A stretch of 64,000 nt of DNA from Mobula hypostoma (lineage: Eukaryota): assembly GCF_963921235.1 (NCBI RefSeq), contig NC_086107.1, positions 99,760,001-99,824,000 of the forward strand, in the 5' to 3' direction. Below the pieces are notes generated by a model. It saw only the letters and a list, made by a program, of their open reading frames with translations, did not search any database and had not been told where the DNA came from. Position numbers and translations under genes: made by a program. Shown piece by piece: positions 9,095 through 42,561 of the stretch. The first letter of the stretch is position 1. Each line of letters begins with the position of its first letter.

Positions 9095-10770
9095 CAGAGT
9101 GGGTGACGTAGTAGCGGACGACAGAGTAGGGAGGCTTTGGCTCGAGAGGCTTCGGCGAGCAGAGGCTGAGGACGAGCCTGCTCCCAGTGAGGCAAGGCCA
9201 GGTAAGTTCTTTTATTTACTCTAATTAACTTAGGGAAGGAGGGAAAAGAGGAGAGCAGTAGTGATAGGGGATTCGATAGTTAGGGGGACAGATAAGAGGT
9301 TCTGTGGGAGAGATCAAGAATCCCGGATAGTCTGTTGCCTCCCTGGTGCCAGGGTCCGTGATATCTCAGATCAGGTTCTCAGTATTCTCAGGAAGGAGGG
9401 TGAGCAGCCAGATGTCGTGGTCCATGTGGGGACCAATGACATGGATAGGAAGAAGGAGGAGGTCCTGCAAAGAGAATTTAGGGAGTTAGGTGCAAAGTTG
9501 AAGGACAGGACCTCCAGGGTTGCAATCTCAGGATTGCTACCCATGCCACGTGCTAGTGAGGCTAGAAATAGGAAGATAATGCAGCTAAATATGTGGCTAA
9601 GGAGTTGGTGCAGGAGGGAGGGCTTCATTTTCTGGACAATTGGGCCTTGTTCCAGGGAAGGTGGGACCTGTTCCAACGGGACGGGTTGCACCTGAACTGG
9701 AGGGGGACTAACATCCTTGCGGGAAAGTTTCCTAGTGCTGCTCCGAGGGGTTTAAACTAGATTTGCAGGGGGAGGGGAACCAGAGTGTTAGAGCAGATAG
9801 TGAGATGGAGGAGGATAAAGGTCATGAGAGAACTGCAAGTATAGTGCATGGAGTAAAGCCAGATCTAACATATAAAGAGGCTTTGAGGAAAGGGAAACAG
9901 AATAAAGGGTGTAAAGGTAGTAAGGTAGAAGGGCTAGAGTGCGTGTACTTCAATGCAAGAAGCATCAAGAACAAGGTGATGAACTGAGAGCTTGGATACA
10001 TACATGGAATTATGATGTAGTGGCCATTACAGAGACTTGGCTGACACCAGGGCAGGAATGGATTCACAATATTCCTGGATTTCAGTGCTTTAAAAGGGAT
10101 AGAGAGGGAGGAAAAAGGGGAGGAGGGGTGGCATTACTGGTCAGGGATACTATTACAGCTACAGAAAGGGTGGGTAATGTAGCAGGATCCTCTTTTGAGT
10201 CAGTATGGGTGGAAGTCAGGAACAGGAAGGGAGCAGTTACTCTATTGGGAGTATTCTATAGGCACCCTGGTAGCAGCAGAGATACAGAGGAGCAGATTGG
10301 AAGGCAGATTTTGGAAAAGTGCAAAAATAACAGGGTTGTTATCATGAGTGACTTTAACTTCCCTAATATTGATTGGCACCTGATTAGTTCCAATGGTTTA
10401 GACGGGACAGAGTTTGTTAAGTGTGTCCAGGACGGATTCCTGTCACAGTATGTTGACAGGAAAACTAGCAGGAATGCCATACTAGATCTAGTATTAGGTA
10501 ACGAACCAGGTCAGGTCACAGATCTCTCAGTGGGTGAGCATCTGGGGACAGTGACCACCGCTCCCTGGCCTTTTCCATTAACATGGAAAAGGACAGAGTC
10601 AGAGAGGACGGGACAATTTTTAATTGGGGAAGGGCAAATTATGAGGCTGTAAGGCTAGAACTTGCAGGTGTGAATTGGGACAATGTTTTTGCAGGGAAAT
10701 GTATTAAGGACATGTGGTCGATGTTTAGGGATCTCTTGCAGGATGTTAGGGATAAATTTGTCCTGGTGAA

Positions 10771-11147
10771 TGTAGCCTCCACGGCCACCCTCAGGGTCGC
10801 TCGGCTTGCTGTCGTCTAGGGAAACAGCCTCGGCCCCGGCAAACTGGGTAATTCGTTTGTGTGGATGCTGTGGGAGGTACCCACCCTGCCCAGCACCTCG
10901 TCCATCCTCTGTCTCACTCTCCCGCCTTCTGCTCCAAAACCCCGCGCATACAGTATCTTCAAATACACCAAAACCATAACTATCCCAATTGGTTAATAGC
11001 ACTCTTATCACACTCAAACAAAAACAAGCCGCTAGTGCAAACTTTCACAACGTTTAACACAACAAAGCCGCATTCCCCAGATTAACATAACAAAGACGCC
11101 ATTTTAATTAGCCTCCGCAGTAACATAAAAGTCGAAACCCCCTTACA
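10771..11147 (-). repeat. 3' LTR (377 bp)
   Basis: Direct repeat of 13855-14238. Preceded on the minus strand by the purine tract GGGGGGAGAG (11148-11157). Confidence 0.93.
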
Positions 11148-11418
11148 CTCTCCCCCCACCAAATAAAGTCATGTCCCTCATGACTTCTAAGTAACTCGCC
11201 AACCAGTCCCGCAGACACACAACACACACATACACAGATACACACAGTGACAGTGCTCCCCAAACAGTGGACCTTACTCCCGTCCCATGGGCGCTACATA
11301 GGCCAACCTATCTGGGAGCTTCTTAACCCTCCGAGACCTCCGTGCCCCCTCACCTAAACCCAAAAGGCTCAGACACTACTAGGGATACCTCGGGCCTGCT
11401 TGCCAATTCCTCTCTCAC

Positions 11419-12834
11419 TCAGGCCACCACTACAGCTCGGAGCCCCCTGTTCCGTGTCCAGGGCCCCGCTTCTCCTCCTTCCTGATCCTGCCGTAACTCA
11501 GACTGCCCACAGCTAGCCCTCCCCACTACACCTGACTCAGTGGGAGAAGGGCCAAAGGTCTCTTCCCCAATCATGGAGAAGTTAGCAAAAGGCAGCATGT
11601 ACCACATGTGCAGCACATCATCCTTTGAATCCATATCCTTCCTCATTCCCTCGATTGGTAGCTGCTGTTTGAGTTTCTCCAAACTGAAACATTTAGCCGG
11701 GGCTACCCCTTTAGCCTCCTGTAGTCGAGACGTCAGCTTCTTCAGGGACTCCTTCAACTCTCGCCACAGTCTCAGCAGTTCTGACTCACGCTTCTTGGTC
11801 ATCTCAATCTGGGACACAGTTACCCCACCAGCTTCTTCCACCCTGACCTGAAAAGCAGCAGTTAAAGAATGTTCAGCCTCCGGTTGTTTCTTCCTGAGGG
11901 CATCTCCCAGGTCAACTTTCAGTTTTTCCATTTCATTTAAACTTGCAATAGTCACCTTCAGGTTCCTTTCAAACATCCGCCTCCCTTTTCCCAGATCTGT
12001 CCTCCATTTCTTTACCTCCTCGGGAGTGTAGTCAAACTCCCCTCCCTGGGCTCTCGGTTTTCTGTTGATCTTAGTCAGAACACTTCCTTGATCTTCCCCA
12101 ACTTGCAAGTCTTCCAATCTGTTCTGAATCGACGTCTTGAGTTTCTGTTGATCCCTTCGAAGGTGGGTCATTGTTTCTTCTCGCTGGATTAATTCATCAG
12201 TACATGACCGCAGTGCGGTGCAAATCCCCTCTCTTCCCTGTGTCTCATTCAGGTTGATGACCTGGGTTTCCATCCCCAGGTCCACCACCATCTGTCCCAA
12301 CACCAGGAAGTTCAACTGGTATGTCAGGTCATTTTCCTCACATTGCACCAAACTCCTCCGGCCAAAAACTCCTCCACATTTGACACTTCGCTTCAGTCGC
12401 CCGGGCTCAGCCACTCGCCTCGCCTCATAGTCCCCCCAGGCGAATCCAAGCTCTAGGCGGTCATCCACATACGTCAAAACTCCACACACCTTCACTTCCC
12501 CCATGGTCTTCCTCATGCCCCGCGGGAAGGATGCAGGGGCTCCGGATATGCCCTTGGGCATCTTTTCGGATCGGAAGAATCCTAGGGAACTAGTAACGGC
12601 CATCTTCAGCTCAACAGCTGCACTCCTCGGGATCTGGCAACATCCACCCCTCAGATGCAGCACATTAAACCACATCGCATAATCCACACACACGCTGCCT
12701 TCATCTTCCACGCCGCTAGGGTCCAGTTGCCGCGACCTCTCTCTCACTGAGGTGTCTTCAGCGGTCAACTCCCCTCCCTCGTGGTAGTTCGGAGCATCTA
12801 CTAAGAGGGTCTCACCCTCAGCTACTTTCCCCAA
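11419..12834 (-). CDS. 471-codon chimeric ORF: degenerate RT + myosin-rod-like coiled coil + Gypsy pol tail
   Basis: aa ~46-150 are RT-like (CVDY, WFNVLHLRGG..QIP, LGFF...MPKGISGAPASF, YVDD at 12460-12471). aa ~161-395 are myosin-tail-like (RVEEAGGVTVSQIEMTKKRESELLRL, AKCFSLEKLKQQL). Expression unknown; the start codon is TTG. Confidence 0.75.
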   Translation of the reverse strand: MGKVAEGETLLVDAPNYHEGGELTAEDTSVRERSRQLDPSGVEDEGSVCVDYAMWFNVLHLRGGCCQIPRSAAVELKMAVTSSLGFFRSEKMPKGISGAPASFPRGMRKTMGEVKVCGVLTYVDDRLELGFAWGDYEARRVAEPGRLKRSVKCGGVFGRRSLVQCEENDLTYQLNFLVLGQMVVDLGMETQVINLNETQGREGICTALRSCTDELIQREETMTHLRRDQQKLKTSIQNRLEDLQVGEDQGSVLTKINRKPRAQGGEFDYTPEEVKKWRTDLGKGRRMFERNLKVTIASLNEMEKLKVDLGDALRKKQPEAEHSLTAAFQVRVEEAGGVTVSQIEMTKKRESELLRLWRELKESLKKLTSRLQEAKGVAPAKCFSLEKLKQQLPIEGMRKDMDSKDDVLHMWYMLPFANFSMIGEETFGPSPTESGVVGRASCGQSELRQDQEGGEAGPWTRNRGLRAVVVA

Positions 12835-12837
12835 GCC

Positions 12838-13368
12838 CTACCACCGCTGGGTCTCGTTTAAATTCGGTACCGGCTCAAGGCTGCTACACACGTCCTCAGA
12901 AGCAACTCGACAGGCTGGGTGCCCAGACGATGCCCCCATGAACTCCAGGGTCATTAACCAATCATCGTCTTCTGGATAACTACTGCCACTAGTACCCAAA
13001 GTCTCCGGTGCCTTTGCGGTTGTCAAGGATAAATGCTTCAGACACCGGTTGTAAAACGAACTGTACAACAACTTGATCTGTGCCCCGGGGTCAAGGATAG
13101 CTTTAGCATCGCTTCCCTCTATCCATAACGACACCCTGGGGCGTGGCCCCTCTAAGCCTTCAGGAATAGAGTCTTCTTTCGGAAGTACATTGGTACATTG
13201 CTGGGAACGTGCTTCCCCAGAGACCCCAAGCCGTTCCCCCACTGGGCCTCCACTAAGTTTCCTGACACCTCTCTGATCAGCTGAACCACTGAAGGAGGGG
13301 CTGATCCCCTGAAATGATCCCCCTGGCACTGCAAGCAATTTAGCCGCCCTCCTAGCCAGAGAAGACAC
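12838..13368 (-). pseudogene. Degenerate retroviral-type aspartic protease
   Basis: GLEGPRPRVSLWIEGSDAKAILDPGAQIKLLYSSFY. The D(T/S)G motif is altered to DPG. Confidence 0.7.
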
Positions 13369-13389
13369 ACTGAAAACTTTCCCCCCTCT

Positions 13390-13700
13390 TTCAAATAACT
13401 GACAGCTGTCACTACGGTGTAAGTGAACCTGACAGCTCTAACACTGTCACCAGCCTGCCTACTCAAACCTTCAACCAATCCCTGTCGCTCTCCCTCAACT
13501 GAGCCTGCCACTCATCTAACAACTGAAAGATCCGCTCCACCCACGTCTCGCACGTCTCCACCCCTCTTGGGGTGGACACTATCCCAAGTGCCAGGCGGAG
13601 CCTGCCAGAGCTAGAACATTTATTCGCAGACCCTACCTCCAAATCAGACCACTCTTCCCTCTCTCTCCCAACCGCATGGGCAGCCCCAAGTGCCACCTCC
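13390..13700 (-). pseudogene. Degenerate Gypsy gag (PNMA/MOAP1-like capsid region), frameshifted
   Basis: RLRLALGIVSTPRGVETCETWVERIFQLLDEWQ, then after a frameshift ERQGLVEGLSRQAGDSVRAV. Resembles the recalled PNMA-type RLRxFSG..P.GEE.FE.W......EW..SE.EKRRRL.ESLRGPA pattern. Confidence 0.65.
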
Positions 13701-13833
13701 AACTCGTCAATGCCAGCCTGAACTCGAACAAAGACCTCACCCACCACGCATACAGCAATCACCAGCAAATAACCCACAGAGACACACATTACAGATTTAA
13801 ACAGGGCACCCACACAGCATACCAGCAGACTCA

Positions 13834-13851
13834 ATCCCGGACGAGCCCCCA
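13834..13851 (-). other. Primer-binding site complementary to the tRNA-Pro 3' end
   Basis: Minus strand reads TGGGGGCTCGTCCGGGAT, the 18-nt tRNA-Pro PBS known from MLV, 3 nt downstream of the 5' LTR. Confidence 0.9.
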
Positions 13852-13854
13852 CAA

Positions 13855-14238
13855 TGTAGACCCCCTGGCCACCCTCAGGGTCGCTCGGCTTGCTGTCGTT
13901 AGGGAAACAGCCTCAGCCCCGGCAAACTGGGTAATTCGTTTGTGTGGATGCTGTGTGAGGTACCCCACCCCGCCCAGCACCTCGTCCATCCTCTGTCTCG
14001 CTCCCCCGCCTTCTGCCCCAAAACCCCGCACATACAGTATCTTCAAATACACCAAAACCATAACAACTATCCCAATTGGTTAATAGCACTCTCTTATCAC
14101 ACTCTAAAGCAAAAACAAGCTCCTAGCGCAAACTTTCTCAGCGTTTAACACAACAAAGCCGCATTCCCCAGATTAACATAACAAAGACGTCATTTTAATT
14201 AGCTTCCGCAGTAACATAAAAGTCGAAACCCCCTTACA
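13855..14238 (-). repeat. 5' LTR (384 bp)
   Basis: Direct repeat of 10771-11147 with TGTA...TACA ends. Followed on the minus strand by the PBS. Confidence 0.93.
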
Positions 14239-15424
14239 TGAGGAAGATGAGGAATGGTAGGGTGACAAGTGCGGTGGAGAATCTAGTCAGGTGGAAGAAG
14301 GCAGCATACATGAGGATTAGTGAGCAAGGATCAGATGGGTCTATTGAGGAATATAGGGTAGCAAGAAAGAAGCTTAAGAAGGGGCTGAGAAGAGCAAGAA
14401 GGGGGCATGAGAAAGCCTTGGCGAGTAGGGTAAAGGAAAATCCCAAGGCATTCTTCAATTATGTGAAGAACAAAAGGATGACAGGAGTGAAGATAGGGCT
14501 GTTTAGAGATAAAGATGGGAAGATGTGCCTGGAGGCTGGAAGTGAGCGAGGTCCTCAATGAATACTTCTCTTCGGTATTCACCAATCAGAGGGAACTTGA
14601 TGATGGTGAGGACAATATGAGTGAAGTTGATGTTCTGGAACATGTTGATTTTAAGGGAGAGGAGGTGTTGGAGTTGTTAAAATATATTAGAACAGATAAG
14701 TCCCCGGGGCCTGACGGAATATTCCCCAGGCTGCTCCACGAGGTGAGGGAAGAGATTGCTGAGCCTCTGGCTAGGATCTTTATGTCCTTGTTGTCCATGG
14801 GAATGGTACCGGAGAATTGTAGGGAGGCGAATGTTGTCCCTTTGTTCAAAAAAGGTAGTAGGGATAGTCCGGGTAATTATAGATCAGTGAGCCTTACATC
14901 TGTGGTGGGAAAGCTGTTGGAAAAGATTCTTAGAGATAGGATCTATAGGCATTTAGAGAATCATGGTCTGATCAGGGATAGTCAGCATGGCTTTATGAAG
15001 GGCAGATCATGTCTAACAAGCCTGATAGAGTTCTTTGAGGAGGTGACCAGGCATATAGATGTGGGTAGTGCAATGGATGTGATCGACATGGATTTTAGTA
15101 AGGCATTTGACAAGGTTCCACACGGTAGGCTTATTCAGAAAGTCAGAAGGCATGGGATCCAGGGAAGTTTGACCAGGTGGATTCATAATTGGCTTGCCTG
15201 CAGAAGGCAGAGGGTCATGGTGGATGGAGTACATTCAGATTGGAGGGATGTGACTAGTGGTGTCCCACAGGGATCGGTTCTGGGACCTCTACTTTTCATG
15301 ATTTTTATTAACGACCTGGATGTGGGGTAGAAGGGTGGGTTGGCAAGTTTGCAGATGACACAGAGGTTGGTGGTGTTGTGGATAGAGTAGAGGATTGCAG
15401 AAGAGACATTGATATGATGCAGAA

Positions 15425-41422: not shown

Positions 41423-42561
41423 TTTCATGCTACAGATGATCTGTGAACGAACCATCCAGGTACAAAAAGACATCTACCTATGTTTCATTGACTATACAAA
41501 GGCTTTTGACACTGTCAGACAGCAAGATCTTCTGGAAATGCTTCAAGACCTTGACATGGATGGGAAAGATATACGTTTCTTAAGAAACTTGTACTGGGAC
41601 CAGACAGCATCCATCAGAATAGAAGGAGAAGTGAGTGAGTATGTGAATATCATGAGAGGAGTCAGGCAAGGTTGTGTCTTTTCGCCAGACTTATTCAACC
41701 TGTAGAGTGAAAATATCTTGAGAAGTATCAAAGATATCAAAGAATTTGCAATTGGAGGCCGTAATATACATAACATCAGATATGCTGATGACATCGTACT
41801 AATAGCTGACTCAGAAACAAAACTTCAAGAACTACTCACTATAGTGGCAGCAGAAAGTAATCGCAGAAGCCTCTCAATCAACACCAAGACGACAGAAAGC
41901 ATGGTCATCTCCAGAAAGACAAACATCCCACAAAGTGTGATCAAGATCGGAAATACAAACATCAAACAAGTCAACAAATTCAAATATCTTGGCAGCCTGA
42001 TAACAAGTGACGGCAGGTGCAACACAGATATCAAATACAGAATAGCAATGGCGAAAGAAGCTTTCCAAAAAATGAAGATCATATTAACAGACAGAAAGAT
42101 GAGCACGTACACTAAAAACAGAATACTGCAGTGCTACATTTATTCTATCCTGACTTATGGAAGTGAATGCTGGACCATTTCTCCAGCAATGGAAAAGAGA
42201 CAAGAAACAGCTGAATTATGGTTCAATAGGAGAATGTTAAAAATATCATGGACCACACACACATCAAATGAAGAAGTTCTCAGAAGAACCCAAGCAGTTC
42301 GATCACTCATACCAACAATAAGAGAAAGACAACTCAGATTCCTAGGATACATCATGCGGAAAGATGAACTAGAAAATCTCATACTCTCTGGAAAGATTGA
42401 GGGGAGCAAACCTAGAGGAAGACCTCGGCTTATGTACGTCAAAAGCCTAGCCAGGTGGCTACACATCGAGGAAATGGAAGTCATCCAAAAAACGAAGGAT
42501 AGATCTATATGGAAAACCATGGTCAACAAAGTCCGCATCGGACACGGTACCTAGACAGACA
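41423..42561 (+). mobile_element. 5'-truncated RTE-clade LINE
   Basis: FIDYTKAFD, RGVRQGCVFSPDLFNL, IRYADD, FKYLGS, GKIEGSKPRGRPR. (agac)n tail. TSD gtcaaagtaaa at 41412-41422 and 42562-42572. Confidence 0.9.

Follow-up and report, generated by a model that had tools for sequence, protein, structure and literature searches.

A MYH16-type myosin rod fragment in a multi-copy Ty3/Gypsy-type LTR element of rays

Acutely transforming retroviruses carry a spliced host cDNA in place of pol-region sequence, which makes them replication-defective and helper-dependent. The LTR element of Mobula hypostoma described here resembles them in the apparent replacement of pol-region sequence by a host cDNA, in being defective and in a probable dependence on helpers. 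It differs from them in its Ty3/Gypsy-type reverse transcriptase (RT), in its cargo, a structural rod without sign of function or selection, and in its long-term spread through the germ line.

For animals, LTR-mediated retrocopies were described, for which two changes of template inside the virus-like particle were proposed (Tan et al., 2016, Genome Res 26:1663; PMC5131818). In this model, the retrocopy is internal, with discontinuous LTR-retrotransposon sequence on either side, and secondary retroposition is possible; microsimilarity at the fusion points is a defining feature (PMC5131818). The maize element Bs1 is treated there as an LTR retrotransposon with partial exons of three plant genes and 1–5 copies, for which secondary retroposition is concluded because all copies share their switch points (PMC5131818). 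Both the mechanism and this kind of chimera are already described in that source.

Like these retrocopies, the ray element holds a partial, internal copy of a host mRNA in sense orientation with the parental frame kept, is non-autonomous and was recopied. A same-strand partial host mRNA in discontinuous LTR-element sequence was found. In the published cases, the retrocopies are young and occur once or in few copies (PMC5131818), whereas the ray family is many-copy, has subfamilies with differing secondary deletions and is common to two ray families. With Bs1, as outlined there, it shares the partial host exonic sequence and the same switch points in its copies; unlike Bs1, it draws on a single vertebrate gene (MYH16-type), and its copy number, though not quantified, is far higher. 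Among the titles and abstract openings searched, no description of a myosin-carrying LTR family was found. The family represents a clear transduction of a vertebrate host gene by an LTR retrotransposon, which was then amplified on a large scale and over a long time. The published model allows this step, which is documented mainly at one to five copies (PMC5131818).

Anatomy of the element and its insertion site

The window, i.e. the whole stretch of 64,000 nucleotides that was analyzed, contains a minus-strand LTR element of 3,468 bp (10771-14238), which is nested in a LINE. The 5′ LTR (13855-14238, minus strand) is 384 bp and the 3′ LTR (10771-11147, minus strand) 377 bp in length. TG..CA ends were read for both, and the direct repeat families D1-D4 are part of the evidence for the 5′ LTR. 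The identity of the pair is 92.8% over 387 aligned columns. A putative primer binding site (PBS) of 18 nt was read from the sequence 3 bases downstream of the 5′ LTR (13834-13851, minus strand); like that of murine leukaemia virus, it would pair with the 3′-end of tRNA-Pro. The putative polypurine tract (PPT; 11148-11160, minus strand) is a purine run which lies directly before the 3′ LTR and abuts it. In the window, ARAGORN found no tRNA genes and Rfam gave no matches at gathering thresholds.

The target site duplication (TSD) consists of TGAA on the left (10767-10770) and TGAG on the right (14239-14242), both identified from the sequence together with the empty-site joints. It is imperfect, with three of four bases identical. 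In all four runs examined (X1, X2, X10 and X19), contigs of paralogous LINE copies without the element join position 10766 to 14239 with 3 shared letters, which defines the limits of the insertion. The host LINE (9234-15330, plus strand) encodes a GDSL-esterase ORF1, an EEP endonuclease and an RT according to Pfam (Lipase_GDSL_2, 2.1e-9; Exo_endo_phos, 4.3e-13; RVT_1, 6.6e-26). The LTR pair, the TSD and the empty-site joints confirm the original prediction of a genuine LTR element. The copy in the window is old, with LTRs that are 7% diverged, and inactive.

The long reading frame and its myosin blocks

The long frame of the element (11419-12837, minus strand) comprises 472 codons from stop to stop, in which a truncated Ty3/Gypsy RT is followed by about 230 codons of myosin-II rod. 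The region 11650-12354, for which a captured myosin rod had been proposed, corresponds to residues 162-396 of this frame, and all peptide strings quoted are present in the frame. The RT remnant with its YVDD motif (12343-12699, minus strand) stops before the thumb and RNase H. For the window ORF, RVT_1 was matched below threshold (Pfam, E 0.075) and the Ty3 RT 4ol8 at E 0.029 (PDB). Its relative P0013 (268 residues) matches the Ty3 RT at E 2.9e-12, covering residues 114-227 of the 478-residue chain, and within the same protein Myosin-7 at E 3e-7. These matches in one ORF bear out that the truncated RT passes in frame into the myosin rod, as had been proposed. Using P0013 and P0007 in tblastn, the RT segment was located at 12406-12711, and the RT breaks off near Ty3 residue 255 of 478. 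Among the matches to P0013 at E ≤ 0.01, no retroviral RT was listed. By these similarities the RT belongs to the Ty3/Gypsy lineage (Metaviridae) and is most like the Ty3 type.

An upstream frame of 199 codons (12838-13437, minus strand) lies in the frame of the long ORF with one TAG between them. It may hold a protease remnant, with a motif LDPGAQ that was recognized by eye only. A programmed read-through stop was considered for the TAG and dropped, since a mutation is the simpler explanation given a protease-like motif upstream and a decayed copy. No Pfam or PDB match was obtained for the frames of the gag/protease region. After the myosin part, the ORF ends in an element-specific tail (11419-11643, minus strand), which is common to other copies in the alignment. 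This tail has no Pfam match and no myosin similarity, as 291 of 500 shuffles score as high. The string RSRRVKKLPDRLAY, which had been read as a pol-tail motif, sits in another frame (11274-11375).

Neither a gag nor an RNase H or integrase domain was detected in the frames searched of the window copy, and RNase H and the integrase core were not found in 15 related proteins either. The element is therefore non-autonomous, its RT being truncated as well. We infer that the RNase H and integrase core were replaced by the myosin insert. A word-seeded search of the RT part against long proteins, which is a weak negative, returned no autonomous partner.

The myosin part was compared with the MYH16-like protein of Callorhinchus milii (P0037, 1946 aa), with which the insert is collinear. 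Block A (ORF residues 209-330; 11848-12213, minus strand) corresponds to residues 969 to about 1100, and the subfamily of the window copy has a 9-residue deletion in it. Block B (ORF residues 332-362; 11752-11844, minus strand) corresponds to residues 1143-1173 and block C (ORF residues 360-393; 11659-11760, minus strand) to residues 1379-1415, and the two overlap by 3 residues at their junction. For each of these three blocks, none of 500 composition-preserving shuffles scored as high; in the controls, the RT part was matched by 210 and the tail, as stated above, by 291 of 500 shuffles. The blocks were thereby found in myosin order, in agreement with the original prediction, with large internal deletions. 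A further block 0 (ORF residues 167-175; 12313-12339, minus strand) reads ENDLTYQL, compared to ENNDLTIQL at residues 877-885. Its score of 34 was reached by 16 of 500 shuffles, so that its similarity to myosin is suggestive only, although its position is collinear.

The window ORF matched Myosin-7 at E 3.5e-6 (phmmer against PDB) and a MYH16-like protein at E 6e-23 (BLASTP with compositional adjustment). When the Callorhinchus MYH16-like protein was searched against the whole window by tblastn, the element was the sole match (E 1.4e-19). The coiled-coil part gave 12 matches in the PDB, i.e. 11 myosin II heavy chains and one MYH7-containing chimera, followed by another MYH7 chimera in thirteenth place at E 0.47. 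Among 1.84 billion proteins, 33 representatives were found at E ≤ 1e-3, 14 of them element-derived ORFs. Each of the remaining 19 matches Pfam Myosin_tail_1 at E ≤ 0.01, and 16 exceed the gathering score. For the window piece, this profile gave no match up to an E-value of 10, and none of 16 element-derived sequences (the window piece and 15 related proteins) matched it at E ≤ 0.01. Other Pfam matches of the window ORF and its 235-residue piece were limited to RVT_1 and generic coiled-coil families, all below threshold. Significant matches to myosin, as expected from the original prediction, were thus obtained with BLASTP and phmmer, and not with Myosin_tail_1. A word-seeded search of the window myosin part against long proteins, likewise a weak negative, found nothing.

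Relationship to MYH16 and copies in other rays

When the window ORF was compared to 21 full-length myosins, the top eight were exactly the eight MYH16-labelled vertebrate proteins (94.7-81.6 bits); the lungfish MYH7-like protein reached 75.9 bits. The nearest non-element relative is a 225-residue gene model of Narcine (P0017), which is labelled 'myosin-6-like', and its best 42 matches are almost all named myosin-16(-like). A tree was calculated from 31 rows and 174 columns. It was restricted to blocks A and B and excluded P0007 because MAFFT --addfragments misplaced block C and this sequence; P0006, P0009-P0012, P0014 and P0016, which have no block A or are chimeric, were also left out. One clade (98/92) unites the MYH16 proteins with the element copies and three MYH16-like fragments. 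The eight element copies are one clade (97/90) and sister to the Narcine model (100/99), with which they share a long stem of 0.41. The BLAST ranking and the clade agree with MYH16 as the nearest paralogue, which had been suggested before. The insert lies inside the MYH16 clade, and differs from MYH16 in that it has no motor domain and has lost about 60% of the rod which it spans. With roughly half of the invariant residues gone, prolines present and Myosin_tail_1 unmatched, its state is that of a gene fragment and not of a functional family member.

The Narcine model may represent a gene of the donor type, a pseudogene or a retrocopy in its own right. Among its best 120 matches no full-length MYH16 of a shark or ray was found, and a holocephalan one was present. 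In the searches run, the only elasmobranch members of the MYH16 clade were the Narcine gene model and the element copies. It is conceivable, although we consider it unlikely, that a batoid MYH16, already degenerating at capture, survives chiefly in these copies. If true, the lineage lost a jaw-muscle myosin of which a mobile element preserved one part as a fossil and multiplied it. The copies also provide a dated snapshot of the ancestral ray MYH16 sequence.

The same fusion is annotated in 15 RefSeq proteins from Mobula birostris, M. hypostoma, Hypanus sabinus and Hemitrygon akajei. The annotated copies of M. hypostoma lie on six different contigs of 67-256 Mb, so that the predicted multi-copy family spreading myosin fragments was recovered. 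The B/C junction is identical in 12 of the 12 copies covering it, from four species, which is the shared switch point of secondary retroposition. The A/B junction is the same in six copies and the myosin-to-tail junction in nine, and the alignment also revealed that different copies lack different large portions of the rod. Thousands of short contigs from three organisms map to the element plus its LINE flanks; two DNA runs alone gave 17,647 and 16,915 contigs on 10600-14400 (element and LINE flanks). The summed contig depths do not represent copy numbers. At the listed variable sites of the myosin part, 8-52 distinct contigs were found at each. Contigs on the element also occur in run X19, which is guessed to be RNA and is no proof of transcription. 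A fusion with the same internal breakpoints across species and contigs points to one old capture which has been amplified since. These shared breakpoints provide a rare-genomic-change marker for batoid phylogeny.

Origin of the fusion

The reading which we consider highly probable is that of a non-autonomous Ty3/Gypsy-type LTR family, here as a decayed copy, carrying a processed MYH16-type rod fragment acquired by template switching at the RNA level. The order of the chimera is 5′ LTR, PBS, leader with possible protease remnant, first part of the RT, MYH16-type rod, tail, PPT and 3′ LTR. The autonomous ancestor probably packaged a MYH16 mRNA along with element RNA, and inside the virus-like particle the RT would have moved from the element RNA onto this mRNA and returned. 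Further switches, or later deletions between similar heptad-repeat codons, would have eliminated the rod at about residues 1101-1142 and 1174-1378. The resulting pseudo-element would have retained the LTRs, PBS, PPT and packaging region, through which autonomous relatives could have copied it in trans many times. As copies from mobulid and dasyatid rays have the same breakpoints, the capture probably took place in an ancestor common to both families.

Sarcomeric MYH genes of vertebrates comprise about 40 exons, and no intron-sized interruption was found inside any myosin block. Intron positions were approached via gaps between MYH16 isoforms or models, and neither of the two gaps (801-841 and 1276-1283) lies in or at the edge of a retained block. 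The partial MYH6/MYH7 models of birds (P0019 and P0022) both break just before the homologues of the start of block A. P0007 crosses this point seamlessly, which is only a hint of intron absence. In the three-residue overlap of blocks B and C, both myosin regions read E-(L/V)-(K/E)-E, and an overlap of similar sequence fits a homology-guided switch. We infer an origin from spliced mRNA, template switching and mobilisation in trans.

An unlikely alternative is capture by read-through and splicing in the style of retroviral oncogenes, in which the element sat in a MYH16 intron, its transcript was spliced to downstream exons and one recombination restored the 3′-end. This would agree with an insert on the strand and in the frame of the element ORF, and with the strong homology of the window copy starting near the exon start of the bird models P0019 and P0022. 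However, P0007 extends upstream to residue 935 of the lungfish MYH7-like protein and block 0 to about residue 877; with myosin sequence further upstream in other copies, that exon start is not the site of the 5′ junction. The junction falls within the region coding for the RT, which is not known to contain a splice donor, and the published animal cases fit double template switching (PMC5131818).

Joining at the DNA level is less probable still. Here, the LTR element would have been united with a processed MYH16 pseudogene that was already present, such as the product of a LINE, through nested insertion, deletion or ectopic recombination, and stayed mobilisable. The genome is LINE-rich and the element itself lies inside a LINE, but the captured part is internal (about 877-1415 of 1946) and not the 3′-end with poly(A) which is expected of a LINE retrocopy. 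Neither a poly(A) nor a second TSD was found at the junction of myosin and tail, and the insert has the sense orientation and keeps the reading frame at either end.

A functional RT-myosin fusion ORF, either as a multimerising Gag-like protein for the element or through exaptation by the host, is very improbable. Its 472 codons are open across at least four junctions in the window copy, the internal deletions are in frame in all aligned copies and 15 ORFs were annotated by RefSeq. In-frame deletions are expected anyway, however, if they occur between similar in-frame heptad codons, and it is not improbable for a frame as long as this one to stay open when about 3.6% divergence has accumulated after insertion (an estimate, not a computed value). 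The large rod deletions differ between copies. Over the 174 columns, prolines are absent from 20 of 20 real myosins and number 0-5 in the copies. Proline and glycine together account for 4.0-9.1 per 100 residues in the copies compared to 1.1-3.4 in real myosins. Most copies carry prolines, which break helices, and extra glycines. At columns with at least 85% invariance in 20 myosins, the copies keep 53% of the hydrophobic and 51% of the other positions; the corresponding identity was 35/43 for the Narcine model (P0017) and 51/58 for a Logan MYH16-like fragment. The proline-free heptads and conserved hydrophobic core of a functional coiled coil were not found. Judged by these residue patterns, the myosin fragment is a neutrally decaying passenger and not a working coiled coil. 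In a bolder variant of the unlikely reading in which the copies preserve a lost batoid MYH16, the in-frame RT-rod fusion would once have been a multimerising protein for the element.

An artefact is practically negligible: coiled coils give spurious matches and Myosin_tail_1 remained unmatched, but all 12 PDB matches of the coiled-coil part are myosin II or contain MYH7, all 19 non-element matches are myosin tails, blocks A-C beat 500 of 500 shuffles and the fusion occurs in four independently assembled species as well as in contigs of three organisms, which rules out two of the objections foreseen with the original prediction, generic coiled-coil similarity and an assembly chimera.

Several element ORFs carry the RefSeq names 'myosin-16-like', 'myosin heavy chain, cardiac muscle isoform-like' or 'myosin-7B-like'. 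As transposon ORFs are named myosins, gene-family counts in rays and myosin phylogenies will be inflated unless the family is masked. In RefSeq, one isoform of succinate dehydrogenase assembly factor 3 ends in element sequence.

Anatomy and myosin content of the element

The LTR element was located on the minus strand at positions 10771-14238 (3,468 bp). Its LTRs are direct repeats of 377 and 384 bp with a mutual identity of 92.8%, both starting with TG and ending with CA. An 18 nt primer binding site, putatively of the tRNA-Pro type, is found three bases past the 5′ LTR (13834-13851, minus strand), and a purine run (11148-11160, minus strand) adjoins the 3′ LTR. The flanking sequences are TGAA on one side and TGAG on the other. 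The element interrupts a plus-strand LINE at 9234-15330 with domain matches to a GDSL-type esterase in ORF1 (2.1e-9), an EEP endonuclease (4.3e-13) and a reverse transcriptase (RT; 6.6e-26). Since this LINE is highly repeated, the empty site could be observed in contigs of other LINE copies: in four out of four public sequencing runs, contigs ran straight from position 10766 to 14239, sharing three letters at the joint. The insertion and its limits at 10771-14238 are therefore established beyond inference from the repeats alone, in agreement with the bona fide LTR element of the original prediction.

The summed contig depth of the LINE flanks was about 40 times that of the element interior, which ranks this LINE among the dominant repeats here; being totals over all contigs, these depths do not give copy numbers. 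Another RT-bearing ORF (41706-42554, plus strand), matching the C-terminal portion of RVT_1 (3.2e-8), presumably represents a further LINE copy. The LTR-end bins were 3-7 times deeper than the element interior. At 13974-13976 in the 5′ LTR and at the equivalent site of the 3′ LTR, 37-40 contigs per DNA run match the U5 side and then diverge. Either there are other LTR families that share the R-U5 end and carry another U3, possibly including an autonomous partner, or there are many solo or variant LTRs.

A stop-to-stop frame of 472 codons (11419-12837, minus strand) contains every peptide quoted in the original prediction. It is separated by a single TAG (12838-12840, minus strand) from an upstream 199-codon frame in the same reading frame. 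The base at 12838 differs from the window in 37 and 45 contigs of two runs (X1 and X2, respectively), so the TAG may be private to this copy.

Using phmmer against all PDB chains, 15 sequences were found at E ≤ 1, namely 11 myosin II heavy chains (best E 3.5e-6), two engineered chimeras with the MYH7 rod and two Ty3 RT/Gag-Pol chains, the latter over ORF residues 53-128. An exhaustive phmmer search with residues 160-400 against 1.84 billion representatives resulted in 33 proteins at E ≤ 1e-3. Fourteen are short ORFs of the element family itself, and all 19 others carry Pfam Myosin_tail_1 (E ≤ 0.01), with 16 exceeding the gathering score. Three rod blocks were aligned to the Callorhinchus myosin-16-like protein P0037 and compared with 500 shuffles each. 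Blocks A (ORF residues 209-320), B (332-362) and C (360-393) correspond to P0037 residues 969-1080, 1143-1173 and 1379-1415, respectively, in the predicted myosin order, and each outscored all 500 shuffles. For the RT part and the tail, which served as controls, there was no excess over chance (210 and 291 of 500 shuffles equally high). The short ENDLTYQL segment, also assigned to myosin earlier, has a collinear counterpart (ENNDLTIQL, P0037 residues 877-885), but an equal or better score was reached in 16 of 500 shuffles, which makes this match suggestive only. By tblastn with two full-length myosins, no second myosin-like place was found within the 64-kb window, which is therefore not a myosin locus. 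Neither the window piece nor any of 15 related element proteins matched Pfam Myosin_tail_1; this counts against the myosin reading and is attributed to divergence and deletions, but it still leaves them without a match to the profile of the protein family. Judged from these comparisons, the myosin similarity of the ORF is real and specific.

Source paralogue of the insert

Among 21 full-length myosins ranked against the window ORF, the top eight places are taken by the eight MYH16-labelled vertebrate proteins and no others. Element copies without block A gave a mixed order of paralogues; the paralogue can therefore not be told from blocks B and C. A maximum-likelihood tree was calculated from 31 rows and 174 columns of blocks A and B, leaving out P0007 as well as P0006, P0009-P0012, P0014 and P0016 (no block A or chimeric). 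A single clade (98/92) unites the MYH16 proteins with eight element copies and three MYH16-like fragments; the other sarcomeric myosins fall outside it (100/99). The eight copies are monophyletic (97/90). Their sister (100/99; long shared stem of 0.41) is P0017, a 225-residue Narcine bancroftii model that was also the closest non-element relative of the ORF (E 3e-20). Its best long matches are nearly all named myosin-16(-like), with Callorhinchus on top. By ranking and tree, the source paralogue is of the MYH16 type, as had been proposed.

The 120 best long matches of P0017 (scored from the 7,999 candidates with most shared words) include holocephalan MYH16 and no shark or ray MYH16, the sole elasmobranch row being a Stegostoma myosin-2-like protein. 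The P0017 model itself is a fragment with multiple isoforms. These observations hint weakly at a degenerate or poorly annotated MYH16 in elasmobranchs. In P0021, a hypothetical protein of the teleost Dallia pectoralis, an AbLIM anchor region (1.3e-21) is joined to an MYH16-like rod fragment; this protein has no relation to the ray element and probably results from a wrongly joined gene model.

Copies, shared junctions and origin of the fusion

All 15 related ORFs are annotated in RefSeq as proteins, from four species: nine from M. hypostoma (on six contigs of 67-256 Mb), three from Hypanus sabinus, two from Hemitrygon akajei and one from Mobula birostris (92% identity to the window piece). As in the window ORF, an RT-remnant start is followed by the rod in P0006, P0007, P0008 and P0013, the last matching both Ty3 RT (E 2.9e-12) and Myosin-7 (E 3e-7) within 268 residues. 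In a 16-sequence alignment, the position of the B/C junction is identical in all 12 copies covering it, that of the A/B junction in six and that of the rod-to-tail junction in nine. Subfamily deletions join early block A to B in four Mobula copies and A to C in two copies, and nine residues of block A are missing from the subfamily to which the window copy belongs. The predicted in-frame fusion and multi-copy spread of myosin fragments were thus both recovered. The shared junctions show a single origin of the family. In the tree, the dasyatid copies are nested among the Mobula subfamilies, so that capture and first diversification predate the mobulid/dasyatid split unless horizontal transfer occurred.

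On the 3.8-kb stretch comprising the element and its LINE flanks, 17,647 and 16,915 contigs of two DNA runs were placed. Within the rod part, every variable site listed was covered by 8-52 distinct contigs. The whole element is covered by contigs from three organisms. This coverage and the replication of the fusion across species exclude an assembly chimera.

The anatomy of the element is that of an LTR-mediated retrocopy. Such retrocopies, described by Tan et al. (PMC5131818) as partial sense host cDNAs inside LTR elements, the same kind as the ray element, arise by template switches between element RNA and co-packaged mRNA and can be copied anew as non-autonomous elements; maize Bs1, with 1-5 copies, is the classic amplified case (PMC5131818). 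Here, a partial, sense, in-frame host cDNA would have taken the place of the middle of pol, with both element ends kept. The reading as a retrocopy-carrying family is held with considerable confidence; within it, template switching is favoured to a lesser degree as the route. Capture through a read-through transcript and splicing is improbable, and DNA-level joining of an LTR element to a pre-existing retrocopy even more so. A word-seeded search of the RT part against long proteins, a weak negative, found no autonomous relative.

State of the rod and annotation effects

No role of the rod part was detectable from residue composition and conservation over the 174 aligned columns. Proline is absent from all 20 real myosins and reaches five residues in element copies, and glycine is two to three times commoner in the copies. 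At 83 columns at least 85% invariant across the 20 myosins, the copies retain 53% of the hydrophobic and 51% of the other residues, an equal loss of core and surface as neutral decay predicts; P0017 retains 35 of 43 and a Logan MYH16-like fragment 51 of 58 invariant residues. The rod thus seems to be decaying neutrally. Weak evidence to the contrary is that the open frame is long and that the deletions preserve it. Both are expected if deletions form between in-frame heptad codons of similar sequence, and the B/C junction does fall within a three-residue overlap of this kind.

By title and opening lines of abstracts, no published description of this family was found in the literature. Mechanism and kind are already known, and the family is a new member, notable for its age, copy number, vertebrate host and effect on annotation. 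In RefSeq, several copies bear myosin names. In P0012 (Hypanus sabinus, 'succinate dehydrogenase assembly factor 3, mitochondrial isoform X1'), a Complex1_LYR N-terminus (2e-12) is followed by rod blocks B and C and then the element tail, which reflects either exonisation of an element copy or a gene-model error. A further chimeric annotation to which the family gave rise is P0014 (Hemitrygon akajei, uncharacterized, 330 residues), in which blocks B and C are combined with N- and C-terminal sequence of no relation to them.
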